Positions 1-54,758 of a DNA stretch of 64,000 nucleotides are shown piece by piece. Numbering within the stretch: position 1 is the stretch's first letter; every line of letters starts with the position of its first letter. The stretch lies in NCBI GenBank assembly GCA_963712865.1, contig CAVQJO010000013.1:190603-254602 (forward strand), in the 5' to 3' direction. Source of the DNA: an uncultured Gaiellaceae bacterium (GTDB lineage Bacteria > Actinomycetota > Thermoleophilia > Gaiellales > Gaiellaceae). The translations under genes and the position numbers were made by a program. The notes under the pieces are model-generated. The model was not told the DNA's origin. It was given only the letters and a program-made list of their open reading frames with translations, and ran no database searches.

Positions 1-2
1 AG

Positions 3-401
3 GAGTCGTCCAATCTGCTCAGCTACCTGCTGCGCTGGGACCTCGACCCCTGGATGTTCCATCAGGCCAATCTGCGCGCGTACGACGGCAGTCGCAGCCT
101 GCTCGGAGACCTGCTCGATGCGACGTTCGCCAAGTACAGGGCCGTCTACAACCTGCCGGTCCGGAACCTCGCGCAGCACGACGCCGGCGTCCTCATGGCG
201 CGGCGCATGGCGTACGACGGCTCCGGTGTGACGGGCGTCCTCGTTCCGTGCGCCTCGGTGACTCTCAGGGCGCCGCGGGCGGCGATCATCCCGGTCACCG
301 GCCTCTCCGCCGAGTCGACGGAGATCTACGGCGGGGAGTCGATCTCCCAGGTCCAGCTCGCCGCAAACGCGCCACGGACGCTCGCGGCACCGGCGTGCTG
401 A
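3..401 (+). CDS. 3' end of a gene truncated by the window edge; hypothetical, possibly a polysaccharide-modifying enzyme of the adjoining EPS locus
   Basis: Frame open from nt 3 (ESSNLLSYLLRWDLDPWMFHQANLRAYDG...). Strong G/C at third codon positions. Stop TGA 399-401 lies 4 nt before the next start. I cannot assign a motif with confidence. Confidence 0.5.
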   Translation, partial: ESSNLLSYLLRWDLDPWMFHQANLRAYDGSRSLLGDLLDATFAKYRAVYNLPVRNLAQHDAGVLMARRMAYDGSGVTGVLVPCASVTLRAPRAAIIPVTGLSAESTEIYGGESISQVQLAANAPRTLAAPAC

Positions 402-405
402 GGCG

Positions 406-3400
406 ATGAGCGCGGTCGCCACACCCGACCTTCACGCACCGAGCGCGCCGGTCGCGAGCGAGCGCCCGGCGCCGGGGGCGCGGACGCGCGTCCTTCTCGT
501 CACGGAGGGGACCTACCCGTTCCACTGGGGCGGCGTCAGCACGTGGTGCCACGCACTGACGCACGGGCTGCCCGACGTCGACTTCACCCTGGTTGCGCTC
601 GCCCGCGATCCCCTCGCCGAACGCCGGTTCGAGCTTGCTCCGAACGTCGTCGACTTCCGGGCCATCCCTCTCTGGGGGGTGCACAACGCCTGGGAGCTAG
701 GGCCGGACCGAAGTCTCGCTACCGCGCGCAGGCGCATCCGCGCCAGCGGGAACGAAGCCCTCTCCGCAGACTTCATCCCGCCGCTGGCGACCGTGGTGCG
801 CGAGTTTCTCGGGGCTTCCCGTGACGACGTCGAGCTTGCAGAGGCGATCCAGGCGATCCACCGCTTCCTCCTGCAGCACGACTTCGACGCCGCCTTTCGC
901 TCGCGCGTGGTCTGGGACAGCTTCTGCGCGCACGTCGCGCGCACGTTTCCACTCGCCGCAGCCCGCCGGGGCTATCCGGCCGCGCAGGCGTCGCTCGCCG
1001 ACGCAACCGTCGGCATGCGGTGGCTCTACCACTGGTTCTTCCCCCTCTCGCAGCCGCTGCCTCGGCCCGACGTCGTCCACACGGCGATGGTCGGCTCGTG
1101 CACGCTGCTTGCCGCGGCGCTCAAGCTCGAGCACGGGACGCCGTTCCTCCTCTCCGAGCACGGCATCTACCTGCGTGAGCGGTATCTCGCCGAGCACACG
1201 TCGAGCGCGAACCTGTTCCGCAAGCTGCTGCTGCTCGGGTTCGCCCGCCGGATGACGGAGCTGAGCTACGCGCTCGCGGACATCGTCTCCCCGTGCTGCG
1301 ACTACAACCGGCGCTGGGAGCTGCGCAACGGCGCGCGGCCCGAGTTGCTCGAGACCGCGTACTACGGCCTCGAGCCGAGGCCGTCGCCGGCCGCCGCCGG
1401 ACCTGCGCGGGGCGGGCCGGTTGTCGTCTGGGCCGGCCGGATCGACCCGCTCAAGGATCTCGAGACGCTCCTGCGTGCGGCGGCTCTCGTGCTCGAAGCG
1501 CGCCCGGACGTGCGCTTTCGGCTCTTCGGCAGCGCTCAGCCCGGCCGCGAGTGGTACCTCCGTCGCTGCCTTGCGCTCCACCGGGAGCTCGCGCTCGGCG
1601 AGTCGGTGAGGTTCGAGGGATTCCGTGACGACACCTCGGACGCGATCGCCCAGGCGGACCTGGTGGTGCTGTCGAGCATCTCCGAGGGGTTCCCCTTCAC
1701 CACCCTCGAGGCGATGCTCTGCGGCAAGCCCGTCGTCGCTACGGCGGTCGGGGGGATCCGTGAGCAGGTGCCGGACTCGTGTGGCATGACGGTCGAGCCG
1801 CGTCAGCCTGCGGCGTTCGCCGAGGCGGTCCTCGCCGTCCTCGACGACCCGGATGGGTACGCGCAACGCAGCCGAGCGGCCCGGGAGCGGGCGGAGTCAC
1901 TGTTCAGCGCGGAGCAGTTCCGCGCCACACACCGCTCATTTTACGAGCGGCTCGGGCACGCCAACGGCAACGGCGCGACCAGCCGCATGCACCTTCGCGT
2001 CGCCTCTCGCGAAGGACCGGTGCCCCAGGGGCCGCCCGAGCACCCGCACCGCCTAGAGGCGCTGGCGAGCGAGCTCGCGGACAGGATCCGCCAACCCATC
2101 GATCCGCTAGAGCTCGCGGCGGTGATCGAGTCGCTCGGGATCACCGACACCGTGGCGCTCGAGCGGTACGGAGCGACCAGCTCGTTCGAGCTTGCGGATT
2201 GGGTCTACGCCGACGTGATGGCCCTCCGGCGGCCTCGCCCCCTCCGTCCGGTCCAGCGCCGGGGGACGGGCAAACGCGACACTCCTGGCCGGGTCGCCGA
2301 TCTCGTGCGCGGCCCGTTCGCGCTCGTGCCGCTGCTCGTTCTCCTGTGCACGATCCAGGCATTCGCCGAGGTGGGCTGGGACAGCGGCCGCCTGTTCGCG
2401 TTGAGCCTCGGCATGACCGCGAGCGTCGCCGTTGCCGGGGCCTTCCTCGGCGGGATCGCACGCCGCGCCGCGCTCTATCTCGGGCTCGGATATCGCGGTC
2501 TCGCGGACCGCCTCCTGACGGTTGCGATTGCCCTCGCAGGGGCTGCGATCACCATCCTCGGCGTTCTCGCCTTCACACTCGCCTCCGCGGTCGGCGCCTT
2601 CGCGGCGGACGAGCGTCTCGTCTTCCTCATCGGGCTCGTCTCGTTCACCGCCGTCGTCCTGTTCGTCGCAAAGCTCTCGGTTGCCGGCGCCACCGGCTGG
2701 GTGTGCCTCGGTCTCGGGACCGGGCTGGGCGCTGCGCTCGCGACCAGGCAGTTCGTCGGCACGGGCACCGGGGCTCAGCTGCTCCTCCCGCTGGCCGTCG
2801 GCGCGGCCGGCGCCCTGACCGTCCTGGCGTGGGCGGCCCGACGGGTCTACGAGGATCGCCGTCCGTCGCCCGCGCTGCCGCCCCGAGCGCCGCTCCTGCT
2901 GGAGGCGCTGCCGTACTTCGCCTTCGTGGGCGCCTTCATGGCCTTCCTGCTCGAGGTGCACGTCTTCGGCTGGTTGGGCGCGCGGCCCGTGGGCATGAGC
3001 CGGCTCGACGCGATCGCTGCGTTCGAGGTCGGACTCACGCTGACCCTGCCGCCCGTGATCCTGGCGAGCGGGGTGGCCGAGCACACGCTGCGCCTGTTCT
3101 GGCTCGAGGCGAGGGAGCAGCAGGACTCGACCTCCGCCCGCCGGAGCCGCCGCTACGGAAAGGCCCTGCAGGGCTTCCACCACCGGCGACTTGCCCTCTA
3201 TCTGGCGACGAGCGCGGCGCTTTCGGTCGCGATGGTTGCGGCGTTCGAGCTCGCCCTGCGCTCGGCGTGGCTCGAAGACCGGGTGACGCTGCCCGACCCG
3301 TCCGCGACTGAGTTCGTCTTCGTCACGGGCGCGGTCGCCTTCTGGCTCGTGGGCTGGGGACAGTTCAACTGCATGTTCCTCGTGAACCTCGCCCGGCCGA

Positions 3401-3591
3401 CGCTCGCAGTCCGGCCGGTCGCGCTCGGGATGGTCGTCGCCGCCGCGACCGGGATCCCGTTGGCGACGGTTGGATTCGAGTACACCGCTCTCGCGTTCGT
3501 CGCCGGCTCGGCCGCCTTCGTCTGGGCCTCGTCCTCCAACTGCCGCGTCGTCCTGGCCGCGGCCGACCACCACTATGCGACGGCGTTCTAG
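406..3591 (+). CDS. PelF-like family-4 glycosyltransferase (DUF3492-type N-domain plus GT4 core) fused to a C-terminal polytopic membrane domain
   Basis: Single uninterrupted 1061-aa ORF. N-terminus LLVTEGTYPFHWGGVSTWCHALTHGLPDVDF resembles PelF/DUF3492. GT4 core SEGFPFTTLEAMLCGKPVVATAVGGIRE. Residues about 620-1061 are mostly hydrophobic helices (10 or more by eye). Confidence 0.85.
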   Translation: MSAVATPDLHAPSAPVASERPAPGARTRVLLVTEGTYPFHWGGVSTWCHALTHGLPDVDFTLVALARDPLAERRFELAPNVVDFRAIPLWGVHNAWELGPDRSLATARRRIRASGNEALSADFIPPLATVVREFLGASRDDVELAEAIQAIHRFLLQHDFDAAFRSRVVWDSFCAHVARTFPLAAARRGYPAAQASLADATVGMRWLYHWFFPLSQPLPRPDVVHTAMVGSCTLLAAALKLEHGTPFLLSEHGIYLRERYLAEHTSSANLFRKLLLLGFARRMTELSYALADIVSPCCDYNRRWELRNGARPELLETAYYGLEPRPSPAAAGPARGGPVVVWAGRIDPLKDLETLLRAAALVLEARPDVRFRLFGSAQPGREWYLRRCLALHRELALGESVRFEGFRDDTSDAIAQADLVVLSSISEGFPFTTLEAMLCGKPVVATAVGGIREQVPDSCGMTVEPRQPAAFAEAVLAVLDDPDGYAQRSRAARERAESLFSAEQFRATHRSFYERLGHANGNGATSRMHLRVASREGPVPQGPPEHPHRLEALASELADRIRQPIDPLELAAVIESLGITDTVALERYGATSSFELADWVYADVMALRRPRPLRPVQRRGTGKRDTPGRVADLVRGPFALVPLLVLLCTIQAFAEVGWDSGRLFALSLGMTASVAVAGAFLGGIARRAALYLGLGYRGLADRLLTVAIALAGAAITILGVLAFTLASAVGAFAADERLVFLIGLVSFTAVVLFVAKLSVAGATGWVCLGLGTGLGAALATRQFVGTGTGAQLLLPLAVGAAGALTVLAWAARRVYEDRRPSPALPPRAPLLLEALPYFAFVGAFMAFLLEVHVFGWLGARPVGMSRLDAIAAFEVGLTLTLPPVILASGVAEHTLRLFWLEAREQQDSTSARRSRRYGKALQGFHHRRLALYLATSAALSVAMVAAFELALRSAWLEDRVTLPDPSATEFVFVTGAVAFWLVGWGQFNCMFLVNLARPTLAVRPVALGMVVAAATGIPLATVGFEYTALAFVAGSAAFVWASSSNCRVVLAAADHHYATAF

Positions 3592-3592
3592 C

Positions 3593-4648
3593 GTGAGCGT
3601 CCGCGAGCAAGCCCCGGCGGAGAAGACGCTGCTCGAGATCGTGGGCCGCTCGAGGCGAGTGCTCGTGACCGGCGGCGCCGGTTTCGTCGGCAGCCATCTC
3701 GCCGAGCGCCTGCTCGCCGAGGGCGACAGCGTCACCGTCCTCGACAACCTTTCCACCGGATCCCTCGAGAACGTCGAGCACCTCCTCGACGAGCAGCGGT
3801 TCACCCTGGTCGGGGGCGACGTCACGGAGCCGAAGCTGGTCGAGGAGCTCGTGGGCGACAGCGACCTCGTCGTCCACCTCGCCGCCGCGGTCGGCGTGAA
3901 GCTGATCCTCGCCGACCCGCTCGGCAGCATCGAGACGAACGTCGTGGGTACCCGCAACGTGCTCTCCGCGGCGGCGAGGGATGGCACGAAGGTGCTCGTC
4001 GCCTCGACGTCAGAGGTCTACGGCAAGGTCGGCCGGATCCCGCAGCAGGAGGAGGACGACGTCATTCTCGGCCCGACCTGCTTCAACCGCTGGTCGTACG
4101 CGGCGGCGAAGATGCTCGACGAGTTCCTGGCGCTCTCGTACTGGACCTTCACGTCCCTGCCGGTCGTCGTCTTCCGGCTCTTCAACACGGTCGGCCCGCG
4201 CCAGAGCGGCGCCTACGGGATGGTCATCCCGCGCTTCGTCGGCGCGGCGGTGCGCGGGCTGCCGCTGCCGGTCTACGGCGACGGTGAGCAGCTCCGCTGC
4301 TTCTTGCACGTGGAGGACGCCGTCGAGGCCATCGTGCGCCTCGCGGACTGCAGCGCCGCGCTCGGCGAGGTCGTCAACGTCGGCTCCGTGGAGCCGGTCG
4401 CCATCCGCGAGCTCGCCGACCGGGTGCTGGCGCAGGTGGGGGAGGGCGCCGTCTCCTATGTTCCATACGAGGAGGCCTTCCCGGAGGGCGGCTTCGAGGA
4501 CATTCGCTGTCGCATTCCCGAGATCTCGAAGATCCGCGCGCTCACGGGCTGGGAGCCGACTCGTTCGCTCGACGACATCCTTGCCGACGTCGTCGCGCAG
4601 TACGCCGCCGCGCCACTGCGGGAGCTCGCGCCCGTGCAGTCCCTGTGA
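3593..4648 (+). CDS. NAD-dependent sugar-nucleotide epimerase/dehydratase (extended SDR; UDP-hexose/UDP-HexNAc 4-epimerase-like)
   Basis: VLVTGGAGFVGSHL Rossmann motif, STSEVYG, YAAAK (YxxxK). GTG 3593 sits just after the upstream stop (ATG 3575 is an alternative). The track ORF start at 3470 overlaps the previous gene and is unlikely. Confidence 0.85.
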   Translation: MSVREQAPAEKTLLEIVGRSRRVLVTGGAGFVGSHLAERLLAEGDSVTVLDNLSTGSLENVEHLLDEQRFTLVGGDVTEPKLVEELVGDSDLVVHLAAAVGVKLILADPLGSIETNVVGTRNVLSAAARDGTKVLVASTSEVYGKVGRIPQQEEDDVILGPTCFNRWSYAAAKMLDEFLALSYWTFTSLPVVVFRLFNTVGPRQSGAYGMVIPRFVGAAVRGLPLPVYGDGEQLRCFLHVEDAVEAIVRLADCSAALGEVVNVGSVEPVAIRELADRVLAQVGEGAVSYVPYEEAFPEGGFEDIRCRIPEISKIRALTGWEPTRSLDDILADVVAQYAAAPLRELAPVQSL

Positions 4649-5733
4649 GAGCCTGTCTCCTCGTCGCCGGCGCCTTCCTCGCGACACTGCTCGCTCCGGC
4701 CGCATCACACGAGCACGCCGCGCGCTGGCTGCCCGCGCCCGGTACGACGTGGCAGTGGCAGCTCACCGTGCCCGTCGACCTGTCCGTCGATGCGCAGGTC
4801 TACGACATCGACGGATTCGACAACTCGGCGCGGGTCGTCGCACGGCTGCACGCGCTGGGGCGCCGCGCCATCTGCTACCTCGACGTCGGTGCCTACGAGG
4901 ACTACCGGCCCGACGCGAGGCGGTTCCCACCATCCGTCCTCGGCAAGCCGAACCCGCTCTGGGAGGGGGAACGGTGGCTCGACATCCGCCGCCTCGACGT
5001 GCTCGCGCCGATCATGCGCGACCGGCTCGACATGTGTCGTGCCAAGGGCTTCGACGGCGTCGAGCTCGACGAGGTCGACGGCTGGTCGAACGACACCGGC
5101 TTTCCGCTCACGGCGGCCGATCAGCTGCGGTACAACCGCTTCCTCGCGCGCGAGGTTCGGGCGCGCGGAATGTCGGCAGGGCTGAAGAACGATCTCGAAC
5201 AGGTGCCGCAGCTCGTCGAGTCGTTCGACTTCGCGATCGACGAGGAATGCTTCCAGTACCGCGAGTGCACCGCCCTGCAGCCGTTCGTGGCGGCGGGAAA
5301 GGCGGTCTTCCACGCCGAGTACCGGCGGGCGCCCGAGGACTTCTGCCCCGTGGCGACGGACCTGGGGCTCTCCTCGATGCAGAAGCGGCTGGTGCTCGAT
5401 GCCTGGCGCGTGTACTGCCGCGCTCCTCGGACGTACGTGCATGCCGCTGAGGCCCTGCCCGACGCAGTGGTGCTGCGGCTCGCTTGCCCGGGTTTCAGCC
5501 CGTGCAGCGGGACGGTGACCCTACGTCCGCCGGCCGCTCCTGCGCCCCTCCTCGCCAGGGCCCGCTTTGTCGTCCCCGCCGGGGCGCAGCGGCCGGTGAA
5601 AGCCGCGCTGACGACGTTCGCACGGACGCTGCTATCGAGCAGGGGTCGACTGCGAGTCGTCGTCGCGGCGGTGACGCAGAACGGCCCTGCGCCGCCGACG
5701 CAAAGTCGGCGGGTCGTCACGCTCGATTACTGA
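4645..5733 (+). CDS. Secreted GH114-type endo-alpha-1,4-polygalactosaminidase
   Basis: Signal peptide MRACLLVAGAFLATLLAPAASH. WQWQL...YDIDGFD...AICYLDVGAYEDYRPD...GERWLDIR...KGFDGVELDEVDGW...GLKNDL...DEECFQYREC...GKAVFHAEY matches the GH114 pattern as I remember it. ATGA-type overlap with the epimerase stop. C-terminal beta-sandwich-like tail. Confidence 0.85.
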   Translation: MRACLLVAGAFLATLLAPAASHEHAARWLPAPGTTWQWQLTVPVDLSVDAQVYDIDGFDNSARVVARLHALGRRAICYLDVGAYEDYRPDARRFPPSVLGKPNPLWEGERWLDIRRLDVLAPIMRDRLDMCRAKGFDGVELDEVDGWSNDTGFPLTAADQLRYNRFLAREVRARGMSAGLKNDLEQVPQLVESFDFAIDEECFQYRECTALQPFVAAGKAVFHAEYRRAPEDFCPVATDLGLSSMQKRLVLDAWRVYCRAPRTYVHAAEALPDAVVLRLACPGFSPCSGTVTLRPPAAPAPLLARARFVVPAGAQRPVKAALTTFARTLLSSRGRLRVVVAAVTQNGPAPPTQSRRVVTLDY

Positions 5734-6866
5734 GGGCGCCGGAGCGTGACGTGCTGCTCGGCGGCGCGTGACGCGAGCGCGGCCTCGAGCGCGGCCACGC
5801 AGCGGGCGTCGAACTGCGTGCCGGAGTGCTTGCGGAGCTCGGCGAGCGCCGCGTCGTGCCCGAGCGGGCCTCGATACGGCCGCGGCTCGACCATGGCGCG
5901 GTAGGCGTCGCACACGGCGACGATCCTCGCGCCGAGCGGGATGTCCTCGCCGGCGAGCCCGTCCGGGTAGCCGGAGCCGTCCCAGCGCTCGTGGCTCGAG
6001 CGGACGAGCGGCAGCACCGGCGCGAGGGAGGCGATCGGGCTCAGGATCTGCTCACCGGCCTGGGGATGAAGCCGCATCACCTCCCACTCGGTCTCGTCGA
6101 GCGGGCCGGGCTTGTTGAGGATCCCCTCCGGGACGTGGATCTTGCCGATGTCGTGCAGAAGCGCCCCGAGCTCGAGCGTCCGCAGTTCGGACTCGGCGAG
6201 CTCGAGCCGGCGGCCGACCGCGAGCGTCAGGTCGCACACCTCTTGCGCGTGCGTGCCGGTGTAGTCGTCCTTCGCCTCGAGCGCGTTCGAGAGCGAGGCG
6301 AGCGTCTCGCGGTAGAGCCGCTGCACCTGCGCGGCGTGCGCGTGCTGGTTGAGGAGCGCGGCCACGTGGCCGGCGAGCAGCTGCGCCACCGCGACGTCGT
6401 CCTCGGAGAACCGCCGGTCGCGCTTGTCGTAGATCTCGAGGAGGCCCCAGGGCCGCGGCGCCGAGCCGAGCGGCAGGATCAGGACGGAGCGCATCCCGAC
6501 CCGCCGGAGCACGAACGCCTCGCCGCGGTCGATGTCGGGGTCGTCGAGCCCGAGCACGCGCGGGACGCCGGTGCGGAGGATCCGCGCCGTCGTCGGGTAG
6601 TCGCTGATGTGGTAGCCGATCTCCCGCTCCAGCACCCAGCCGCCCGGCGCGTAGCCCGCGGTGTCGATGAGCGTGTCGGCGGCGAGCCGCGAGACCGTGC
6701 ACGCGCTCGCGCCGAGGAGCGTGACGAAGCGCATGGCTGCCGCGTCGAGGGTCTCCTGCTCGCCTTCGAGCGCGCCGAGGGCGTCGAAGACGTTCGCCAG
6801 CGCCAGCAACGACGAAGCGGGCCTCAGAGACCATGCGGCGGCAGCGTCGAGTCCTCGAGCGTGCAT
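5727..6866 (-). CDS. GAF domain / HD-GYP domain protein (putative c-di-GMP phosphodiesterase)
   Basis: Intact 379-aa ORF. LHDIGKIHVPEGILNKPGPL...HERWDGSGYPDGL...ARIVAVCDAYRAM is the HD-GYP signature. N-terminal half is GAF-like. Convergent with the GH114 gene (7-nt overlap). Confidence 0.85.
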   Translation of the reverse strand: MHARGLDAAAAWSLRPASSLLALANVFDALGALEGEQETLDAAAMRFVTLLGASACTVSRLAADTLIDTAGYAPGGWVLEREIGYHISDYPTTARILRTGVPRVLGLDDPDIDRGEAFVLRRVGMRSVLILPLGSAPRPWGLLEIYDKRDRRFSEDDVAVAQLLAGHVAALLNQHAHAAQVQRLYRETLASLSNALEAKDDYTGTHAQEVCDLTLAVGRRLELAESELRTLELGALLHDIGKIHVPEGILNKPGPLDETEWEVMRLHPQAGEQILSPIASLAPVLPLVRSSHERWDGSGYPDGLAGEDIPLGARIVAVCDAYRAMVEPRPYRGPLGHDAALAELRKHSGTQFDARCVAALEAALASRAAEQHVTLRRPQ

Positions 6867-6936
6867 CGCGATTTACGCATCGTCTGCCCACGCGAAAACT
6901 TGAGCCGGGGCCGAGATAGGATCGGCTTCGACGCGG

Positions 6937-7356
6937 ATGATCCGACCGGGTTCGTACAACCTTCGGGTGCTCGCGCTTGGCGTGACGACCGCGGGCGGGT
7001 TGGCGATAGGGGTTGCAGCGGCGCTCCTGTGGTACTCCCGCCGAACGAACGAGGGAGGGCCGACGGCGGCTTCGCTTCGCGACGCGAGCCTGGCGATCAT
7101 CGGAGCCGGCATCGGCCTCATGATCGGGAGTGCGCTGACGGGCTTCCTGCTCCGAGCTGCACCGTTCGTGGGCGGTGTCGCAGCTGGGAGCCTCGCCTTC
7201 ATCTTCGCGCTCGTTCCGGTGCTGCTCGTCGCGGTCCCGGATGTCCACGCCGCCGAGGTCGTCCTGGCCGCGCTCATCGCCGGCTTCCCCGTCGTCCTCT
7301 TCGTTCTCGTCGGCGCGCTGGCGGGGTCGATGCTGAGCGATCTCAGGGAGCCGTAG
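6937..7356 (+). CDS. Hypothetical small membrane protein
   Basis: 139-aa ORF with 3-4 hydrophobic helices and GC3-rich codons. Its tail overlaps the convergent add stop by 15 nt. Confidence 0.45.
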   Translation: MIRPGSYNLRVLALGVTTAGGLAIGVAAALLWYSRRTNEGGPTAASLRDASLAIIGAGIGLMIGSALTGFLLRAAPFVGGVAAGSLAFIFALVPVLLVAVPDVHAAEVVLAALIAGFPVVLFVLVGALAGSMLSDLREP

Positions 7357-8375
7357 CCCCGGCGGCCTTGCGGATGAAGCTCGCCTCGTGCCCGCGCTGG
7401 TTCGCTTCGCGGAGCTGATCCTGGCCGTGAGCGCGCCCGATGCGCTCGAGGAGCTCGAGCTCGTCGCGGAGGTGCGTCCGCATCATCTCCGGGCCCGTCC
7501 GTCGCGATCGTGAACGCGACGTCGTGCTCGAGGAACGCGTGGAAGGTCTCGCGCACCGCGGCCTCGTCGGGAAGGGCCTTCGTCAGCAGGTTCGAGGTCG
7601 GGCAGATCTCGAGCACGACGCCGGCCTCGCGGAGCAGCCGCATCAGCTCGGGGTCGCCCGCCGCGAGGATCCCGTGCCCGATCCGGTCGGGCCGCAGGTG
7701 CTCGACGACCTCGCCGATCTCCTCCGCGCCGGTCGCGCCCTCCTCGCCGACGTGGATCGTGACGCCGAGGCCGGCCTCGCGCGCGGCCTCCACCATCGGC
7801 TCGAGGCCGCGGTAGTCGTACCGCTCTCCTCCCGGTCGCGGCCCGGCCACGTCGATGCCGACGATGCCGCGCGAGGCCCAGCTGATCGCCTTCTCGACGA
7901 CGACCTCGTTCTGCCGCTGCGTGAACGTGCGGTCCATCATCAGGATCAGGCCGCAGCGAACCTGGGGGTACTCCATCGAGGCCCGGTCGAGGCCGCGGAC
8001 GGCCGCGAGGATGACGTGGTCGAGGTCACGCTCGCCGCCGCGGTTCCGCTTCATCGGGTTGAAGCGGAGCTCGAGCGTCGTGATGCGCTGCGAGCGGTAG
8101 GCGCCGCCGATGGCGCCGTGGACGGAGCGCTCGACGGCGAGCGGGGAGGACTGGATCAGCTCGGTCCAGTGGTAGATGCGGTCGAGGGCGTCGAGGTTCT
8201 CGACGCCGCGCGCGTCCGAGACGGTGACGAGCGCGTCGAACTCCCAGTAGTCCTTCACGGGCAGCGCGATGCCCTGCTCGTGCGCGAGCGACCAGAGGAT
8301 GTCGGAGGCGACGGAGCCGCCGAGGTGGGTGTGGAGCTCGGCGAGCCCCTCCGTGGACGCCGCGGCGCTGCTCAC
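7342..8375 (-). CDS. add: Adenosine deaminase, one apparent frameshift
   Basis: LAELHTHLGG...HVGEEG...ATDGP motifs. On the minus strand GGGCCC-G-GAGATGATG (about 7490) carries one extra base. Removing it restores TDGPEMMRTHLRDELELLERIG...ASFIRKAAGATAP and stop TGA at 7344-7342. The track ORF 6873..8375 is the out-of-frame read-through. Confidence 0.8.
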
Positions 8376-8992
8376 GGCGTCACGCGCTCGACGAGGTCGC
8401 GGAGCTCGGGCAGGAAGCCCGGATCGATCGTGTGCGGCAAGGGGTACTCGCGGTAGAGCAGGTCGGCGCCGGCCTCCTGGACGAACTGCCGCGCCTGGCG
8501 GCCGTACTGCACGGAGATGACGTCGTCGTAGGTGCCGTGGCCGATCGCGATCGGATGTCCGTCGAGGCCGGTGACGTCGAGCTCGAGGCCCTCCACGACG
8601 GGCAGGAACCCGGAGAGGGCGACGATCGCGGCCGGGCGGGCGGCCGCACCCCGGCCCAGGCCGAGCGCCCAGCTCATCACCGCGCCCTGCGAGAAGCCGC
8701 CCAGCACGATCGGCCGCGGCAGCTCGTCGAGCAGCCCGGACAGGAGCTCGAAGCTCGGCCAGAACGTGTCGTGATCGGGCGTCGGGATGCCCGCGAGGCG
8801 ATACCAGTGCGCGCCTCCCGGTGGCAGCGAGAGCGGCCCGCGCGGCGTCAGGCCGAGCAGCCGCCGCTCGGGATCGAGCTCGTCGAGCAGAGGGAAGAGG
8901 TCGCGCTCGTCGGCGCCGCGGCCGTGGAGGAGGACGAGACTGCCGGCCGGCTCGCCGGCCGCGGGGCGCTGGAGGCGGACTAGGTCCGCCAC
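8372..8992 (-). CDS. Phospholipase/carboxylesterase-family alpha/beta hydrolase
   Basis: LLHGRGADERDL...GGFSQGAVMS (GxSxG)...GHGTYDDV. GTG start at 8992. ATGA overlap with the add start. Confidence 0.75.
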   Translation of the reverse strand: MADLVRLQRPAAGEPAGSLVLLHGRGADERDLFPLLDELDPERRLLGLTPRGPLSLPPGGAHWYRLAGIPTPDHDTFWPSFELLSGLLDELPRPIVLGGFSQGAVMSWALGLGRGAAARPAAIVALSGFLPVVEGLELDVTGLDGHPIAIGHGTYDDVISVQYGRQARQFVQEAGADLLYREYPLPHTIDPGFLPELRDLVERVTP

Positions 8993-9905
8993 GCGGCGCG
9001 TGGATCGGGAAGCGGCGTCAGCACGGGCTCGATCCGGTCGCGAAGATGCTCGAACGCAGGCGGCAGCGAGAGCCGCTCGCCCAGGTGCTCGGCGTCCTCG
9101 TCGGCCGAGAAACCGGGGCCGAGGGTCGCGATCTCGAACAGCACGCCGCTCGGCTCGCGGAAGTAGACCGACTTGAAGTAGAAGCGGTCGATCACCGGCG
9201 TCGGCTGCATGCCCGCCTGCGCCACCCGTTCGCGCCAGGCCTCCTGCTCGGCCGACGGCGACGCCCACGCGATGTGGTGCACGGTGCCCGCGCCGCCGAC
9301 GCCGCGCTCGGCCGGCGCGGGCTCGAACGCGAAGAGCCCGCCGCGCTCCTCGCCGCGGATCTCCCACTCCGCGTCGCCGCGCGGCTCGAAGCCGAGCGCG
9401 CCCTCGAAGAGCGCGCGGCTGCGCTCGACGTCGGTCGGTGAAGGCACGGACGCCGTCGAAGCCCTGGAGCGCGAGGTCCTCCGGGATCTCGGGGTGCTCG
9501 GCGACGAGCGGCTCGTCGTCGGTCTCGCACGACCGCGAGCTCGAGCGCGACGCCCTCGGGGTCGCTGAACGAGACCCGGCCGGCCGGCCGGTCGACGCGG
9601 ACGCCCTCGTCCTGCAGCCGCTCCGCCCAGAAGTCGAGCGCGTCCTCGGAGCCGACGCGGTAGACGATCGTGTGCACCATCCCGGCGCCTGGCCGCCCGC
9701 GCCGCGCGCCCGGATACTCGAAGAAGGTGATGTCCGCGCCCGGGCTGCCGTGCTCGTCGGCGTAGAAGAGGTGGTAGACGGTCGGGTCGTCCTGGTTGAC
9801 CGTCTTCTTCACGAGCCGCTGGCCGAGCACGCGCGTGTAGAAGTCGACGTTGCGCGGCGCGTCGCCCGTGATCAGCGTGATGTGGTGGATGCCCTCGAAG
9901 CGCAT
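8980..9905 (-). CDS. Two-domain ring-cleaving dioxygenase (glyoxalase/VOC family), two apparent frameshifts
   Basis: MRFEGIHHITLITGDAPRNVDFYTRVLG (frame of track ORF 9192..10511). Middle segment ETDDEPLVAEHPEIPEDLALQGFDGVRAFT lies in a third frame. C-terminus DVERSRALFEGALGF...HHIAWAS...FYFKSVYFREPSGVLFEIAT lies in ORF 8980..9915. Junctions near 9530 and 9440. Confidence 0.7.
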
Positions 9906-9956
9906 CAGCGCCCATGATGACAAGTGCGCGGAGGTGCAGCGCTTAGACTCACCGGC

Positions 9957-11095
9957 GTGAAGGTGGGGATCGTCGTCCCGTTCTCGTGGTCGTTCTGGGG
10001 TGCGGTGGTCGAGCACGCGGAGCTCCAGGCGGCCGCGCTGCGGCGGCTCGGCGCCGACGTGCGCCTCGTGATGGGGAACGATCCGCCCGGCCAGTTCACG
10101 CGCGCGCTCCACCCGCGCGTCGGGCAGGCACGGCGAGCCGCCGCCGGAGGTGATCCCGATCGGCCGCTCGGTGATCGTGCCGGCCAACGGCTCGCTGCCG
10201 AACATCATCCTGAGCCCGCGCGCCATCCTCCGGATCCGGCGCGTGCTCGAGCGGGAGCAGTTCGACGTGCTGCACCTGCACGAGCCGATGACGCCGATCC
10301 CGTGCATCGCGGCGCTCGCGCTCTGGGACGGCCCGATGGTCGGCACGCACCATGCGAGCGGCGAGCTCGGCTGGATGCGGCTGGCGGCGCCGGTCTGGGG
10401 CTTCCTCGAGGAGCGGCTCGACCACCGGATCGCCGTCTCCGAGCAGGCGCGCGCCTCGGCGCAGCGCTGGCTTCCCGGCGAGTACGAGGTCGTGCCGAAC
10501 GGCGTCCTCATCCCGCCCGAGGCGCGACCCGGCCGGCCGCGAGCACCGCGTCGTGTTCGCGGGCCGGCACGAGCCGCGCAAGGGCCTCCAGGTCCTGCTC
10601 CGAGCCTGGCCCGAGATCCATCGCCGCACCGGCGCGCGGCTCCGCGTGGTCGGCGCCGATCCGCTCGCCGTCCGGCTCCTGCTGACGCGCCTGCGCGTGC
10701 CGGACACGGGCGTCGACGTGCTCGGCTTCCTCAGCCAGGAGGAGCTGACGGCCGAGCTCTCGTCCGCGAAGGCGCTCCTCGCGCCGTCGCTCGGCGGCGA
10801 GAGCTTCGGGATGGTGCTGACACGGGCGTTCGCCTGCGCGACGCCGGTCGTCGCGTCCGACATCCCCGGCTACCGTGACGTGATGACGCCGGACACGTCC
10901 GTTCCGGTCCCGCCCGGCGACCACGACGCGCTCGCCGACGCCGTCGAGGCGCTGCTCGAGGACGAGGAGCACCGGCAGCGGCTCGGAGCGGCCGCCCGAC
11001 GCTCGCGGTCGAGCGGTACTCGTGGGACGACATCGCGCGGCCGGCTGCTCGAGATCTACGAGGGCGTGCAGCCACGCGAGCGAGTCGCCGCATGA
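9957..11095 (+). CDS. GT4 (group 1) glycosyltransferase, about four apparent frameshifts
   Basis: VKVGIVVPFSWSFWGAVVEH..., IPIGRSVIVPANGS, RVVFAGRHEPRKG, ESFGMVLTRAFACATPVVASDIPGYRDV, LAVERYSWDDIARRLLEIYEG. These are spread over track ORFs 9924, 10150 and 10352. Junctions near 10122, 10525, 11000 and 11041. Confidence 0.75.
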
Positions 11096-11120
11096 CGCAG
11101 TCATGCGGCTCTGAGGGGGC

Positions 11121-11147
11121 ACCGGGGAACCAAGCGGTTCCCCCGGT
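11121..11147. repeat. Imperfect palindrome ACCGGGGAACC-aagc-GGTTCCCC(C)GGT just downstream of the GT4 gene
   Basis: Read directly. An 8-bp core stem GGGGAACC/GGTTCCCC shares its core with the palindrome at 11192. Possible terminator. Confidence 0.4.
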
Positions 11148-11191
11148 GGAGCGCGCCGCCGCGCAGCAGCGGCGACGGCGCGCAGGGGGTT

Positions 11192-11218
11192 CGTGGGGGA
11201 AACCGGGTTTCCCCCACG
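11192..11218. repeat. Perfect 27-nt palindrome CGTGGGGGAAACC-G-GGTTTCCCCCACG
   Basis: Read directly. 13-bp arms around a single central G, about 77 nt upstream of the 11295 start. Operator or hairpin candidate. Confidence 0.45.
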
Positions 11219-11294
11219 CGACCGAGGCTGTCCGCATCGTCCCCGGGCAAAGCCCGGAGACGAGTGCTCGAGAGCTTGGGGCGAGGGAGGCCGC

Positions 11295-12362
11295 GTGAAG
11301 GTCGTGGTGCAGAGCCGGCTCGTCCAGGTTGCGTTCGTCGTCCTGCTGCTCGGCCTCGCCGTCTCGCTCGTCTGGTGGCGCGGGCCCGGACTGGAATCTC
11401 GTCTACCACGCGTTCGACTTCGTCAACTGGGCCTGGATCGTCTTCGCGCTCGCGCTCAACCTCGCCTCGGTCGTGGTGAGGGCGCTCGCCTGGCAGCTGA
11501 CGATCGTGCAGGCGCTCGACCCGCCCGACCCGCCGTTCAACCGGACGTTCTCCGCCTTCGCCGTCGGCCTGCTCGGGAACGCGGCGCTGCCTGGTCGGAT
11601 CGGCGAGCTGGCGCGGGTGGCGGTCCTGCGGCGGCGGCTGCCGGAGCACGGCACCGGCACGAGTGCCGCGCTCGTCGGGACGGTCTTCGCGCACCGGCTC
11701 TTCGACCTCGTGCCGGCGCTCGCGCTCGTCGGGTACGTGCTCGCGACCGCGAAGATCCCGCACTGGGCGGTGACGAGCCTCGTGATCGTCTCGGTCGTCG
11801 GGATCGTGCTCTTCCTCGGCGCGATCCTGCTCGCGCAGCGCCGCCACCGGCCGGCCCTCGAAAGCGCACAAGCGCGATGCGCCACCTCCTCGCGATGGCC
11901 CGGCAGGGCCTCTCGGTGATGAAGGCGCCGGCGCCGGCGGCCGGCGCGATCCTGCTCCAGTCGCTGGGCTGGTTCCTCCAGCTGATCGCCGTCTACGTCG
12001 CGATGCGCGCGTTCGACATCCACGCGCCGCTGCCCGCGGCCGGGCTCGTCCTCCTGCTGATGAACGTGGCGACGATCTTCCCGCTCTGGCCGGGCAACAT
12101 CGGTCTGCTGCAGGCGGCCGTCGCGCTCCCGCTCGTCCAGTACGGCGTGCCCTACTCGACCGGGTTCGCCTACGGGATCGTGCTGCAGGTGATCGAGATG
12201 TCGGTCGGCGTCGGTGTCGGCCTCATCTTCCTCGCCCGCGAGGGCCTCTCGTTCGCGACGCTGAGGGACATGCCGGAGGTGGTCGAGGCCGCCGAGGAGG
12301 AGGACGCGCTGCTGGCGGACCTGGAGCAGGAGCCGCATCGCGCGCGCGCCGGCGTGGGCTAG
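11295..12362 (+). CDS. Flippase-like / lysylphosphatidylglycerol-synthase transmembrane-region family (UPF0104) membrane protein, two apparent frameshifts
   Basis: GTG 11295 preceded by GAGGGAGG. GLLGNAALPGRIGELARVAVL and LLLMNVATIFPLWPGNIGLLQAAV motifs. Pieces lie in track ORFs 11193 and 11329. Junctions near 11385 and 11870. Confidence 0.65.
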   Translation: MKVVVQSRLVQVAFVVLLLGLAVSLVWWRGPGLESRLPRVRLRQLGLDRLRARAQPRLGRGEGARLAADDRAGARPARPAVQPDVLRLRRRPARERGAAWSDRRAGAGGGPAAAAAGARHRHECRARRDGLRAPALRPRAGARARRVRARDREDPALGGDEPRDRLGRRDRALPRRDPARAAPPPAGPRKRTSAMRHLLAMARQGLSVMKAPAPAAGAILLQSLGWFLQLIAVYVAMRAFDIHAPLPAAGLVLLLMNVATIFPLWPGNIGLLQAAVALPLVQYGVPYSTGFAYGIVLQVIEMSVGVGVGLIFLAREGLSFATLRDMPEVVEAAEEEDALLADLEQEPHRARAGVG

Positions 12363-15963: not shown

Positions 15964-16064
15964 TTTGCGTCGAGTGTTCGTGGTGCACTAGACGAACCCT
16001 GCGCCCAAAGGTTTGCCTTGTACAGGGGTAGGTTTCGACCCTCCCCGGCTAGGTCCTGCGGTTT

Positions 16065-17395
16065 TCAGCGCAGGCCGGCGCGCGCATCGTCGATGCGGCG
16101 GCCGAGCTCGTCGAGGCGCGCCTCCAGGGCCGCCCGCTCGGACTCCGCCTCCGCGACGACCGCGCCGAGCACGCGCCGCAGCTCCGCGTCCGCGTGCGGA
16201 GATCCGCCGCTCGGCGTCGGCCAGCAGCTGCTCGTGCTGGCGCTCGAAGGAGGCCTGCGCCTGGCGCAGCCGCGTCTCGAGGCGCTGCTGACCCGTGTCG
16301 CCGGTGTGCGAGAGGCGCTCGGCGAACACGCCCTCCGCCTGGCGCATGAACGTCTCGGCGGCGCGCTCCATCTCCCGTGAGAGCCTGGCCGCGGCCTCCT
16401 CGCGAGCGCTTCGCAGGGTTGCGTCGAACTGCTGGGCCGCGGCCTCCGCGAAGCGCTCGGCCTCCCGGGCGACGACGCGCTGGAGCTTCTCGACCTGCCT
16501 GCGCTCGACGTCCGCGAACGCGACCTCGATCCTCGCCATCGCCTCGGCCTCGTTGCGCTCGATCTGCTCGGCGAGCGTCTGCTCGCGCTTGCGCAGCCGC
16601 TCGGAGATCTCCTCGATCACGCGGCGGCGCTCGCTCGTGTGCGCCTCGAGCTCGCTGAGCGCCTCCGCCACGGCGGCCTGCGCGGAGCGCTCGAGCTCCT
16701 CGCGCAGGCGCAGCACCGAGGCCCGCTGCTCGTCGGAGGTCGAGACGAGCTCGGCGGCCTCCGCCTCGATGCGCGCCTCGGCCTCGGCGATCAGCTGGCG
16801 CTGCCGCTGCTCGAGCCGCGTCACCTGCCCGGCCAGGCCCTGCTGTGCGCGGTCGACGTCGTCCGACCACGCCCGCAGGCGCTCGTCGACCCGCTGCTCG
16901 ACGGCCGCGAGCGCGTCGTCGAGCTCCGCGCCTGCGGCGCGCTCGCGCTCGACGAGCGCCTGGCGGCGCTCCTCGGCCAGGCGGCGCTCCTCCTCGGCGA
17001 GCAGCGAGACGAGTCGGCGCGCGCACGCGCCGCCCAGCGCTGCAGCTCTTCGCGGCTCGCCGCCTGCTCCTCCTCGATCACGCTCCTCGACCTCGGCCCG
17101 CGCCTGATCGAGCACCGCGTCCGCGGCCTCGCGCCGCGCCGCACCGCGCGCGCGAGCAGGGTGGCGCCGGCCTCCGCGACGGCTGCGGCGACGAGACCGG
17201 TGGCGGCGAGCGCGATCTCCCGCTCGGGGTCGAAGGCGAAGACGACCCAGCCCGCGGCCGCCGCGCGCGAGCAGCACGAGCGTGAGCGCGGCCAGGAGCC
17301 GCGGTCTCGCGCGCCCGGCGGCGGCGGCCGCGAGCGATGCGGCCGCGACGACGACGGCGGCGGCGAAGGCGATCTGGAGCGCGGTCTCGAGCCAC
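16065..17395 (-). CDS. N-terminally membrane-anchored Ala/Glu/Arg-rich coiled-coil protein, about four apparent frameshifts; start uncertain
   Basis: Hydrophobic N-terminus (LETALQIAFAAAVVVAAASLAAAAA...GWVVFAFDPE) followed by about 330 aa of heptad-like E/R/A/Q sequence. True C-terminus DAELRRVLGAVVAEAESERAALEARLDELGRRIDDARAGLR with stop at 16067-16065 is reached after a junction near 16195. Other junctions near 17240, 17085 and 17010. Confidence 0.5.
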
Positions 17396-28719: not shown

Positions 28720-29725
28720 ATGGGCAACGACAACGGCGGGGCGGCCGCCATCCGAGACGGCAGCCAGGCTGCTCGCCAACATCGAGACGGTCGTCCGCGG
28801 CAAGACGGAGGAGATCAAGCTCGTCCTCACCGCACTCGTCTGCGGCGGCCACGTCCTGCTGGAGGACGTGCCGGGCACCGCGAAGACGGTGCTCGCGCGG
28901 GCGATCGCCGGCAGCGTCGAGGGCGCGACGAACCAGCGCATCCAGTGCACGCCCGACCTGCAGCCGACGGACGTCACCGGCCTCTCCGTCTTCGACCAGA
29001 AGGAGCGCGACTTCGAGTTCCGGCCCGGGCCCGTGTTCGCGAACGTCGTCCTCGTCGACGAGATCAACCGGGCGATGCCGAAGACGCAGTCGGCGCTCCT
29101 CGAGGCGATGGCCGAGCAGCAGGTGACGATCGACGGCGTCACGCGGGCGCTGCCCGACCCGTTCCTCGTTCTCGCGACCGAGAACCCGATCGAGCAGGAG
29201 GGCACGTTCCCGCTGCCGGAGGCCCAGCTCGACCGCTTCTTCCTCCGTACCGCGCTCGGCTATCCGAGCGAGGACGACGAGCTGGCGATCGTCGAGGCGC
29301 AGCGGCACGCGCATCCGCTGACGACGCTGCGGCCGGCGCTCGGGCTCGACGACGTCCACGCGCTCCGCGCCGCGGTCGAGGCGGTCTACGTCGACGACGC
29401 GATCCGCCGCTGGACGATCCAGTTCGTGCGCGCGACGCGCGAGGTCGAGGGCATCGCGATCGGCGCGTCGGTTCGCGGCAGCCTCGCGCTCGAGCGCGCG
29501 ATCAGGGCGTGGGCGCTCCTCGACGGCCGCGACTACGTGACGCCGGTCGACGTCGAGCGGCTCTTCCTGCCCGTCGTCCTCCACCGGATCGTCTTCACCC
29601 CGAGCTTCGTCGCGACCGCGCGCGAGATCGGCTGGGACGCGGCCTCCGCGGGTCTCCGCGAGCAGTGCCTGGCGCTGGCGCCGAGGCCGGGTGCCGAGCT
29701 CGAGGCCGTGGCGAGCCTGACCTAG
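28720..29725 (+). CDS. MoxR-family AAA+ ATPase, one apparent frameshift
   Basis: HVLLEDVPGTAKT (Walker A), VVLVDEINRA (Walker B), FLVLATENPIEQEGTFPLPEAQLDRF. N-terminus MGNDNGGAAAI joins ETAARLLANIETVVRG across a junction near 28752. Confidence 0.85.
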
Positions 29726-29726
29726 C

Positions 29727-30610
29727 TTGAGCGCGACCTTTCCGCTCATCCCCGGCGCCGCGTGCTCGGGCTCGCGTTCGGCGGCCTGCACAGCATCCGC
29801 CGCGGCCACGGCTCGGACGTCGCCGCCTCGCGCCCGTACCGGCCGGGCGACGACATCGGCAAGATCGACTGGGCCACCTCGGCCCGGCTCTCGCTCGCCC
29901 GGGGGACGGACGAGTTCGTCGTCCGCGAGCACTTCGCGGAGGAGGCGCCGCGCGTCGTCGTCCTCTCCGACCGCCGGCCGTCGATGGCGCTCTTCGGCGA
30001 GGAGTGGCCGTGGCTGCACAAGCCGGCGGCGATCAGGCAGGCGGTGCGCCTGATCGGCGACAGCGCCGTCGCCGCCCGCGGCCTCCTCGGCTACTACGAC
30101 GAGGGCGAGCCCGAGCCGTACTGGCACCCGCCGCGCAGCGAGGGCGAGATCGGCCGGCTCGACTTCGATCGCCCGTTCGGCGCGCCGGAGGGCACGGTCA
30201 CGAGCGGCCTGCGGCACCTGATCGAGCAGCGGCGCGACCTGCCGGCCGGCACCTTCGTCTTCGTGCTCTCGGACTTCCTCGTGCGGCCGGGCCGCGACGA
30301 CTGGCTCTGGGCGCTCGAGCGCCGGTGGGAGATCGTGCCCGTCGTCATCCAGGATCCCGTCTGGGAGCAGAGCTTCCCCGACGTCGCCGGCCTCGTGGTG
30401 CCGTTCGAGGGCGCGGGCCTCGTGCGGCTCTCGCGGGCCGAGGTCGCGCGCCGGCGCGAGGCGAACGAGGAGCGGCGGCAGACGCTCCTGCGCGACCTGC
30501 GCGCGCTCGATCTCGACCCCGTGCTCGTCTCGTCGCACGAGCCCCGCGACGTGCTCTTCTCGTTCCTCAGCTGGGCCGACCAGCGGCTCTTCACGCAGGG
30601 GGCGCGCGTG
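29727..30610 (+). CDS. DUF58 protein (MoxR partner), one or two apparent frameshifts; 3' end uncertain
   Basis: TTG 29727 directly after the moxR stop. FPLIP-RRRVLGLAFGGLHSIRRGHGSDVAASRPYRPGDDIGKIDW is the DUF58 hallmark. Single-base loss near 29750. The frame runs into the next gene without a stop. Confidence 0.75.
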
Positions 30611-47811: not shown

Positions 47812-48090
47812 GTGACGAAGCAGGAGTTTGTTGATGCGGTGGCCTCGAAGAGCAATCTGACCCGGCGCGACGCAGGCGCAGCGGTGGATGCGTTCCTCGA
47901 CGTCGTGACGGACACCCTCAAGTCCGGTGACGCGATCACGTTCACGGGCTTCGGCAAGTTCTCGACCGCCCAGCGCGCGGCGCGCGAGGGCGTGAATCCG
48001 CGCAACCCCTCGCAGAAGGTGCACATCCCGGCCGCGACCGTGCCGAAGTTCTCGGCCGGAAGCCAGCTCAAGTCGGCCGTCAAGGGCTAA
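47812..48090 (+). CDS. hup: Histone-like DNA-binding protein HU
   Basis: GTG 47812 after ACAGGAGGAG. TKQEFVDAVASKSNLTRRDAGAAVDAFLDVV...GFGKFSTAQRAAREGVNPRNPSQKVHIPAATVPKFSAGSQLK. Confidence 0.9.
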   Translation: MTKQEFVDAVASKSNLTRRDAGAAVDAFLDVVTDTLKSGDAITFTGFGKFSTAQRAAREGVNPRNPSQKVHIPAATVPKFSAGSQLKSAVKG

Positions 48091-48108
48091 TCGCCCACGA
48101 GAGAGCTC

Positions 48109-48148
48109 GAAGGCCCCGGTCCGCGCGAGCGGCCGGGGCCTTCTCTTT
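48109..48148 (+). terminator. Rho-independent terminator of hup
   Basis: GAAGGCCCCGG - 13-nt loop - CCGGGGCCTTC, followed by TCTTT. Confidence 0.6.
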
Positions 48149-48160
48149 CGCGCTTGCATA

Positions 48161-48174: not shown

Positions 48175-48188
48175 CCTAGGCTGATGTC

Positions 48189-53272: not shown

Positions 53273-54758
<1,486 letters not shown>

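Follow-up and report, generated by a model that had tools for sequence, protein, structure and literature searches.

The stretch of DNA analysed here, a window of 64,000 nucleotides from an uncultured Gaiellaceae bacterium (assembly GCA_963712865.1, contig CAVQJO010000013.1, positions 190,603 to 254,602), opens with four closely packed genes that point in one direction (positions 3-5733 of the window) and are followed by a convergent GAF/HD-GYP gene. An earlier reading of the bare letters, which we call the sequence-only reading, had described this arrangement as a compact exopolysaccharide locus resembling the bacterial Pel system and the fungal galactosaminogalactan (GAG) cluster, and the open reading frame (ORF) calls find the genes where that reading had put them. 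The features are listed below, with the strand and the kind of evidence for each; SDR stands for short-chain dehydrogenase/reductase.

3..401, plus strand: 3' end (last 132 codons) of a predicted Agd3-type CE18 polysaccharide de-N-acetylase, whose 5' part lies beyond the first letter of the window
406..3591, plus strand: PelF::PelG fusion of 1061 aa, predicted synthase (Pfam, NCBIfam, AlphaFold2)
490..1944, plus strand: PelF domain, residues 29-513, comprising DUF3492 and GT4, GT-B fold (NF038011, DUF3492)
2044..2226, plus strand: cytosolic four-helix module, residues 547-607 (conservation, model, profile match)
2278..3588, plus strand: residues 625-1061, predicted PelG-like membrane domain of many helices, modelled in the fold of the MOP superfamily (MATE/Wzx/MurJ) (Foldseek, Pfam matches of orthologues)
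3575..4648, plus strand: extended-SDR sugar-nucleotide enzyme, 357 aa from ATG 3575 (or from GTG 3593) (Pfam, motifs)
4645..5733, plus strand: predicted secreted GH114 endo-alpha-1,4-polygalactosaminidase, Ega3-like, 362 aa (Pfam, PDB match)
5727..6866, minus strand: GAF + HD-GYP protein, 379 aa, a convergent neighbour outside the conserved cassette (Pfam, motifs)

The genes practically touch each other. The upstream gene stops at TGA 399-401 and, after a 4-nt gap, the glycosyltransferase starts at ATG 406. Two starts can be considered for the SDR, namely ATG 3575 (the catalogued product P0121), which overlaps the glycosyltransferase stop by 17 nt, and GTG 3593, 1 nt past the TAG of the glycosyltransferase; the longest SDR ORF opens at 3470. 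The SDR stop and the GH114 start share GTGA at 4645-4648, and GH114 overlaps the minus-strand HD-GYP gene convergently by 7 nt. All four cassette ORFs are intact in the window (for Agd3, the 3' part only) and are split in two 98%-identical contigs, L003 and L091, the latter a fragmentary 7.8-kb contig retrieved with the exact sequence of the SDR product (P0121). Positions 1-9500 were scanned for promoters and terminators and none were found, such a scan being uninformative in a genome of 72% G+C. The G+C content is flat along the window (0.70-0.76), so that the idea of a recently acquired foreign island has no compositional support, yet the genomic contexts of the cassette do differ between genomes.

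A single-protein scan of contigs returned one close relative only, and we therefore used an alignment-based scan with one genome per species, which gave 80 loci, of which the 65 that were non-redundant and had enough flank were counted. Of these PelF loci, 55 have an Agd3 homologue in the flanks, 44 have GH114, 43 have the two together, and just three have any HD-GYP match. The same four genes occur in the same order in L001, L004 and L005/L006, where both flanks are completely different. Since the gene order is identical while the glycosyltransferases are 51-69% identical and the flanks are unrelated, the arrangement is not due to chance: the four-gene set of this uncultured soil actinobacterium is a genuine, well-formed operon, and the conservation of the genes together in relatives, which the sequence-only reading had named as a point on which it could fail, was found. 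One further locus, L003, is the window's own locus at 98-99% identity, with GST and then Agd3 genes upstream, and HD-GYP, adenosine deaminase and esterase genes downstream; a number of its genes are broken up, probably owing to long-read indels. Among cultured bacteria, strains of Streptomyces, Kitasatospora and Actinomadura (L028, L031, L032, L034, L037, L039, L043, L046 and others) carry clusters of the form agd3 - pelF - PelG-like - SDR - ... - GH114, located at ~12.8-14.2 kb in each locus, with GH114 proteins 55-65% identical to that of the window. These carriers offer tractable hosts in which the system could be tested.

The truncated upstream gene, which the sequence-only reading could not recognise but suggested might be the missing deacetylase, is one by homology. 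Its 132-codon fragment matches positions 280-359 of the 366-position Pfam model Agd3_CE (E 2.6e-5), with a score that is under the gathering level because only a fragment is present, and it retains the CM4 catalytic-acid motif WMFHQANLR (codons at ~nt 51-77). In L004 the orthologue has 698 aa, and its residues 567-698 share 76.5% identity with the fragment. In related contigs, the gene that precedes the glycosyltransferase encodes 588-839 aa with CBM87_Agd3 and Agd3_CE domains, both of which are also found in the L004 orthologue, and the latter matches the crystal structure of Agd3 (6NWZ) with an E-value of 1.5e-36. Moreover, its DD, HTYTH, PR and MFH motifs align with Agd3 residues D377/D378, H510/H514, R613 and M666/H668, to which mutagenesis has assigned the roles of base, metal triad, base-coordinating arginine and acid. 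The N-terminus of the L004 protein is basic and then hydrophobic, which suggests export or anchoring. Judged by these homologies, the deacetylase is predicted to be of the fungal CE18 type and not of the PelA type. In another related locus (L010, 3432-9729) PelF::PelG is preceded by two Agd3 paralogues in tandem, of which one is split in the gene calls, and these are in turn immediately preceded by a glmS gene (GATase + SIS), which is suggestive of a link to hexosamine supply.

For the second gene, the sequence-only reading recognised one half of the protein and missed the other. The PelF-like glycosyltransferase half stands: NCBIfam NF038011 gives 160.7 bits (cut-off 100) over model positions 2-489 of 489, and Pfam finds DUF3492 (158 bits) and GT4, so that the hidden Markov model (HMM) search, which could have put the protein outside this clade, placed it within. 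The EX7E motif of the GT4 domain (E427/E435) is invariant in 68 homologues. What had gone unnoticed is that the PelF domain (residues 29-513) is followed by a disordered linker, a four-helix module (547-607) and about a dozen long helices that run to the C-terminus. AlphaFold2 models the full-length protein with a mean pLDDT of 88.6 and a pTM of 0.87. Full-length homologues of 1000-1270 aa form at least 120 clusters, mostly metagenomic, and those named by source are called "GT4 family glycosyltransferase PelF" and come from Actinomycetota, Chloroflexota, Acidobacteriota and Dormibacterota; an exact-sequence look-up of the 1061-aa protein itself returned no record. One Streptomyces ORF that looked like a similar fusion (L042) proved to be a stop-to-stop overlapping-frame artefact, in which the glycosyltransferase and the PelG-like part lie in different frames.

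The evidence that the C-terminal ~440 residues form a PelG-like exporter domain of the MOP fold is indirect but consistent. Over its whole length the domain can be aligned with the C-terminal half of each of seven relatives, and four of these eight orthologous domains match Pfam PelG (PF16933, best E 5.3e-7), the window's copy being among the four that do not. An HMM built from the eight-domain alignment matches, over its full length and with E-values of 1e-36 to 1e-56, the separate gene that follows pelF in Firmicutes; two of these stand-alone Firmicutes genes in turn give weak PelG matches, which score below the gathering level and cover nearly the entire model. While a profile search of the domain against PDB sequences gave noise alone (ATP synthase gamma, E 0.08), its AlphaFold2 model (pLDDT 92.3, pTM 0.88) retrieved MOP-superfamily transporters exclusively when compared with the PDB by Foldseek, among them the MATE transporter 3w4t (E 7.5e-6), the lipid III flippase WzxE (9g95) and MurJ, with TM-scores of 0.60-0.68 normalised to the target and a probability of 1.0. 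The four-helix module, which precedes the first membrane helix and is modelled at pLDDT 92-95, is near-invariant at P564, E569, A572, E575, G578, D581, A584, G589, F594 and L596, following the pattern P-x-D-x-L-E-x-A-A-x-x-E-S-x-G-I-T-D ... F-x-L, with E575 and F594 invariant in 68 sequences. The profile match to the stand-alone Firmicutes PelG-like genes extends over this module as well, and it could be a PelF-docking or regulatory element.

The assignment of the last gene of the operon to GH114 was likewise upheld by the HMM search (Pfam GH114, 274.9 bits). The protein matches fungal Ega3 (6OJ1/6OJB) with an E-value of 2.1e-56 and 44% identity over 225 residues, and its D142 and E200 align with D189 and E247 of Ega3, whose roles as nucleophile and acid/base have been verified experimentally (PMC12054363). 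Both here and in orthologues the N-terminus is hydrophobic and signal-like (in L004, for example, MRGAAVVAAGLLVALIGPASA and then QE), and the enzyme is predicted to be secreted. A C-terminal extension of ~100 aa is conserved with L004. Bacterial GH114 enzymes were said in a 2025 structural paper to "remain elusive" as soluble proteins. Other arrangements of this family were seen among the related loci: in an Anaerolineae genome (L007, 17440-20418 and 20423-21214) GH114 is fused to subtilase (Peptidase_S8) and CAP domains in a protein of 992 aa, with a spherulin-4 (Sph3-like) gene next to it, and a Mycobacteriales metagenome-assembled genome (L009, 8985-12623) has two GH114 genes and a spherulin-4 gene.

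The third gene is the one for which our results depart from the sequence-only reading, which had taken it for a sugar-nucleotide 4-epimerase. By Pfam it belongs to the Epimerase/GDP_Man_Dehyd family. Its best solved match, however, is human UDP-glucuronate decarboxylase UXS1 (PDB 2B69/4GLL; 185 bits, 39% identity), ahead of Pal (150 bits) and PelX (130 bits), and its motifs ASTSEVYG, YAAAK, RLFNTVGPR and GEQLRCF align with ASTSEVYG, YDEGK, RIFNTFGPR and GSQTRAF of UXS1. The Thr-Ser-Glu, the Tyr-x3-Lys, RxFNxxGPR and the arginine of GxQxR all have counterparts in human UXS1, to which ArnA and U4kpxs are related decarboxylases; no curated model was passed. PelX, a proven UDP-GlcNAc 4-epimerase, has ASSAAVYG and YAADK at the equivalent positions. 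Nor does ASTSEVYG fit the pattern S-S-x-A/T-x-YG that a GalE-type enzyme like Uge3, a bifunctional UDP-Glc/GlcNAc 4-epimerase, would lead one to expect. A glutamate two residues past the catalytic Thr/Ser is a hallmark of C5/C6 chemistry after C4 oxidation, as in UXS, ArnA, GMD and the LegB-type dehydratases, and epimerases of the GalE, WbpP and PelX types are without it. All NCBIfam equivalogs scored under their cut-offs (LegB 168/475, RmlB 160/365, U4kpxs 130/294, GalE 121/262), and the automated names of the relatives conflict ("UDP-glucose 4-epimerase" from JGI, "GDP-mannose 4,6-dehydratase" from NCBI), so the function is not settled by them. From alignment and motifs, the enzyme is most likely a UDP-(N-acetyl)hexuronate decarboxylase or 4,6-dehydratase, at a little better than an even chance, and an atypical epimerase is possible but clearly less probable.

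Taking the genes together, we consider it probable that positions 3-5733 form an operon for a synthase-dependent, partly de-N-acetylated and hence cationic, hexosamine-rich exopolysaccharide of an Agd3/GH114 type that links Pel and GAG. This is close to what the sequence-only reading had proposed: its observation is confirmed, with the PelF, GH114 and Agd3 assignments and their co-conservation speaking for a compact Pel/GAG-like locus, and its interpretation is largely correct, though supported in part only. From the identities, the catalytic residues, the fusion, its fold and the co-conservation described above we infer the polymer chemistry, the order of events and the cellular role as follows. 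The cytoplasmic SDR would supply or modify a nucleotide sugar by C4 oxidation with C5/C6 chemistry (decarboxylation or 4,6-dehydration), and the cytoplasmic PelF-type GT4 domain would polymerise UDP-sugars, the PelG-like MOP-fold domain of the same polypeptide moving the chain across the membrane. Outside the cell, a secreted or anchored Agd3-type CE18 enzyme would remove N-acetyl groups, which would make the polymer cationic and adhesive, and the secreted GH114 would cut deacetylated alpha-1,4-galactosamine stretches in trimming, release or remodelling. Ega3 is a GH114 specific for deacetylated alpha-1,4-galactosamine (GalN) stretches, and a synthase-dependent logic of this kind has been proposed for both GAG and Pel (PMC4817252, PMC9860509, PMC7112168).

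Several points weigh against this interpretation. The agd3 gene is incomplete in the window, with its N-terminal four fifths outside, so that its intactness in the organism was not seen, and it is broken in L003, probably through assembly indels. The window's own C-terminal domain has no Pfam match at E <=10, including PelG PF16933 at E <=1. The SDR does not fit the role of supplying N-acetylgalactosamine (GalNAc) that would be expected from Pel (PelX) or from GAG (Uge3); homology searches revealed no 4-epimerase, the GalE-like SDR query having been run against the related loci only, nor did they reveal a nucleotide-sugar 6-dehydrogenase across the whole 64-kb window. Pfam showed no spherulin-4/GH135 family in the cassette proteins or in the 22 further ORFs of the window that were scanned, and the spherulin-4 query was run on the related loci only. 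Finally, no polymer has been isolated from any cassette-carrying bacterium, so that its chemistry is deduced wholly from the genes.

The kind of locus seen here has been anticipated. Bamford et al. 2020 (Nat Commun 11:2450, PMC7229062) found Agd3 homologues in 45 bacterial species, with agd3 in or near operons in 30 of the 35 species in their tree, and proposed these operons as uncharacterised exopolysaccharide clusters that support a bacterial ancestry of the GAG cluster. As described in the main text and figure legends of that article, the operons, like our locus, contain Agd3 (CBM87 + CE18), a cytoplasmic glycosyltransferase, a multi-spanning membrane protein and GH114; they occur in Actinobacteria and other Terrabacteria, sometimes with spherulin-4 genes, and are experimentally uncharacterised. 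Our locus differs in that a single polypeptide combines the glycosyltransferase with the membrane protein. As far as the main text and legends define the class, the locus has every feature listed for it and is an instance of what was predicted in 2020, not a new kind. The words "dehydrogenase", "decarboxylase", "PelF" and "PelG" occur in neither the main text nor the figure legends, and the SDR type and the PelF/PelG identity are therefore, with respect to those parts of the article, additions of the present analysis. Within the searchable literature we found no experimental study of a bacterial CE18/GH114 cluster.

The GAG cluster of Aspergillus fumigatus (uge3, sph3, ega3, agd3, gtb3) shares with the locus homologues of Agd3 (CE18/CBM87) and of Ega3 (GH114, 44%) and, by analogy, a single membrane-embedded glycosyltransferase as synthase and the same logic of synthesis, export, deacetylation and trimming. 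The locus differs in having no Uge3-type GalE epimerase, its SDR being UXS-like, and in having a PelF::PelG synthase of ~115 kDa as opposed to the ~300 kDa of Gtb3, to which the likeness is a functional analogy between membrane glycosyltransferases. With Pel (pelABCDEFG in Pseudomonas; pelDEADAFG in Gram-positives, Whitfield et al. 2020, PMC7112168) it shares PelF, a probable PelG-like MOP-fold exporter and, again by analogy, a cationic alpha-1,4 GalNAc/GalN-type polymer as the likely product. In the locus, however, PelF is fused to the PelG-like part, there is no PelD and no PelE, CE18 stands in place of the CE4-like deacetylase of PelA and GH114 in place of GH166, and the SDR resembles neither PelX nor the GalE of Bacillus loci. 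The locus thus lies outside Pel proper, with no PelD, PelE or PelA, and outside the GAG cluster proper, with no Uge3-type epimerase and no Sph3 among the scanned ORFs.

Among the alternatives, the one that survives best is that the polymer is not plain GalNAc/GalN, and that the Thr-Ser-Glu SDR, together with a UDP-HexNAc-type 6-dehydrogenase in the deeper-branching cassettes, makes a C6-modified donor for the chain, such as UDP-XylNAc or UDP-Xyl (by decarboxylation) or a 4-keto-6-deoxy sugar. Besides the resemblance to UXS1, this draws on the constancy of the SDR, which is orthologous in L001, L004-L010 and L012 (55-78% identity, better conserved than the glycosyltransferase), always with ASTSEVYG and YAA[AS]K; the exception in the fused clade is L015, where the glycosyltransferase is 58% identical and the order is Agd3 - PelF::PelG - GH114, with no SDR. 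In L007, L008, L010 and L012 the SDR directly follows a nucleotide-sugar 6-dehydrogenase, and in L009 the dehydrogenase opens the cassette. These dehydrogenases favour UDP-ManNAc dehydrogenase models (~260-280 bits) and TviB (~200) over UDP-glucose dehydrogenase models (140-180 bits). Classic GalE-like SDRs (SSAAVYG/YGVSK) are present in L007 and L009 as separate, extra genes, Firmicutes pel loci have GalE-like SDRs, and the agd3 clusters of Streptomyces, Kitasatospora and Actinomadura have a second, divergent Thr-Ser-Glu SDR (TSTSETYG/YAASK), whose best PDB match is nevertheless PelX (126 bits). A UDP-GlcNAc dehydrogenase and UXNAcS pair reportedly exists in Bacillus cereus and might be a precedent; our literature search for UDP-XylNAc brought up nothing usable. 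On the other hand, no assay exists, every NCBIfam match of the SDR is below cut-off and the automated names disagree, motif-based function calls among extended SDRs are error-prone, and GH114 and Agd3 indicate GalN/GalNAc. The HexNAc-looking dehydrogenase partner, moreover, belongs to distant cassettes and is missing from the window's cassette and its nearest relatives as well as from the window as a whole. We therefore regard a C6-modified donor as possible but clearly less probable than not. More tentative still is its generalisation, in which bacterial Agd3-type systems would make a cationic exopolysaccharide chemically distinct from both Pel and GAG, using a PelF::PelG synthase that has no cyclic di-GMP (c-di-GMP) receptor and a UXS/LegB-like SDR whose ancestral partner would have been a UDP-HexNAc 6-dehydrogenase; Agd3 would then de-N-acetylate an amino sugar that lacks C6 or is modified there (e.g. 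XylNAc).

To return to the operon as a producer of a hexosamine-rich, partly deacetylated polymer, the question arises whether it is under local c-di-GMP control, as the sequence-only reading had suggested from the HD-GYP neighbour, which would then substitute for PelD as a phosphodiesterase. The neighbour, a convergent gene that abuts the operon, is well formed (HD_5 PF13487 131.5 bits, GAF_2 46.6 bits; its translation includes LHDIGK and HERWDGSGYP), and Pel synthesis in Pseudomonas and Bacillus cereus does depend on c-di-GMP via PelD (PMC7112168). Nevertheless, the gene adjoins the cassette only in the window and in the same organism's L003 (98-99% identical), it does not occur within 10 kb of the cassette in L001, L004, L005/6 or L007-L012, and the matches in three of the 65 related loci are weak (28-37% identity), come from loci of the Firmicutes type and do not adjoin the cassette. 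A phosphodiesterase is, furthermore, not a receptor, and no receptor domain was found: PelD, PelE, PilZ and GGDEF (with its I-site) are absent from the cassette proteins by Pfam and from the vicinity of the cassette, in a scan that covered part of the window's ORFs, and neither PelD nor PelE occurs within 10 kb in the twin locus L003 (gene calls + Pfam). The cassette genes abut each other and leave no room for PelD or PelE between them. Local control by the HD-GYP protein is thus very unlikely, and since it is not co-conserved with the cassette we take it, on comparative grounds, to be a real gene but a chance neighbour that is outside the system.

That the locus is simply a canonical Pel system of the pelABCDEFG / pelDEADAFG family is very improbable: the PelF equivalog match and the PelG-like domain would agree with this, but PelD, PelE and a PelA-type deacetylase/GH166 hydrolase are missing, with the unrelated CE18 Agd3 and GH114 in their roles, and the Gram-positive core is pelDEADAFG (PMC7112168). 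Least credible of all is a catabolic or antagonistic locus, in which the target of the secreted Agd3 and GH114 would be fungal GAG or foreign Pel and not a self-made polymer. Both enzymes are predicted to be extracytoplasmic, and biofilms of GAG and Pel are disrupted in vitro by GH114 enzymes (PMC12054363), but here the two are coupled in translation to a fused glycosyltransferase and exporter and to a nucleotide-sugar enzyme, co-occur with PelF in about two thirds of the loci counted, and are accompanied in the cassette by no genes for uptake or catabolism.

Cationic, partly deacetylated GalNAc polymers such as Pel and GAG are major biofilm adhesins and virulence factors. To our knowledge the mechanism of their synthases is not known, PelF/PelG never having been reconstituted and Gtb3 being too large to study. 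The operon described here is such a system in a minimal form of four genes, with the polymerase and the exporter in one confidently modelled protein of 115 kDa, and this makes it attractive for biochemistry and cryo-EM; if the fusion is what it seems, it would provide a tractable bacterial model, three times smaller, of the uncharacterised fungal synthase Gtb3. The 44% identity between GH114 and Ega3 is relevant to the proposal that the GAG cluster passed from bacteria to fungi. Should the SDR be confirmed not to be an epimerase, the products of clusters that are widespread in soil bacteria, many Streptomyces included, would not simply be Pel or GAG. What the present analysis adds to the earlier descriptions is the PelF::PelG fusion with its predicted MOP fold, the CE18 identity of the truncated gene and the exclusion of the HD-GYP neighbour, and probably also a non-epimerase role for the conserved SDR, with a HexNAc-type dehydrogenase linked to it.

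The remainder of the window holds several minor observations. Two large ORFs, 15991-17277 (minus strand) and 48090-49781 (minus), have no Pfam match. At 9924-12362 (plus), 3 kb downstream of the cassette, a GT4 gene is followed by a lysylphosphatidylglycerol-synthase-TM-family protein (Pfam, from the L003 gene calls), a pair that is not kept beside the cassette in other genomes. The far end of the window (58997-64000) has ribosomal protein L13, a phosphoglucosamine-mutase-like gene (PGM_PMM I/II, 61129-62331) and the start of a SIS-domain (GlmS-like) gene; these look like housekeeping genes for the UDP-GlcNAc precursor and, being 55 kb away, are probably unrelated to the cassette. A number of housekeeping genes look frame-broken or chimeric (6873-8375 and 8372-9367, minus strand; 53632-56337 and 58997-59776, plus strand): in the adenosine deaminase ORF the Pfam match covers only residues 12-295 of 500, and ~200 residues at the C-terminus are non-homologous and rich in Arg/Pro/Ala, the L13 ORF has an in-frame MFS-like piece ahead of it, and IMPDH and GMP synthase are present as fragments. 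This suggests indel errors of long-read metagenome assembly. Lastly, at 28868-30724 (plus) a MoxR-type AAA ATPase (AAA_3) is followed by a DUF58 protein, a common conserved pair.

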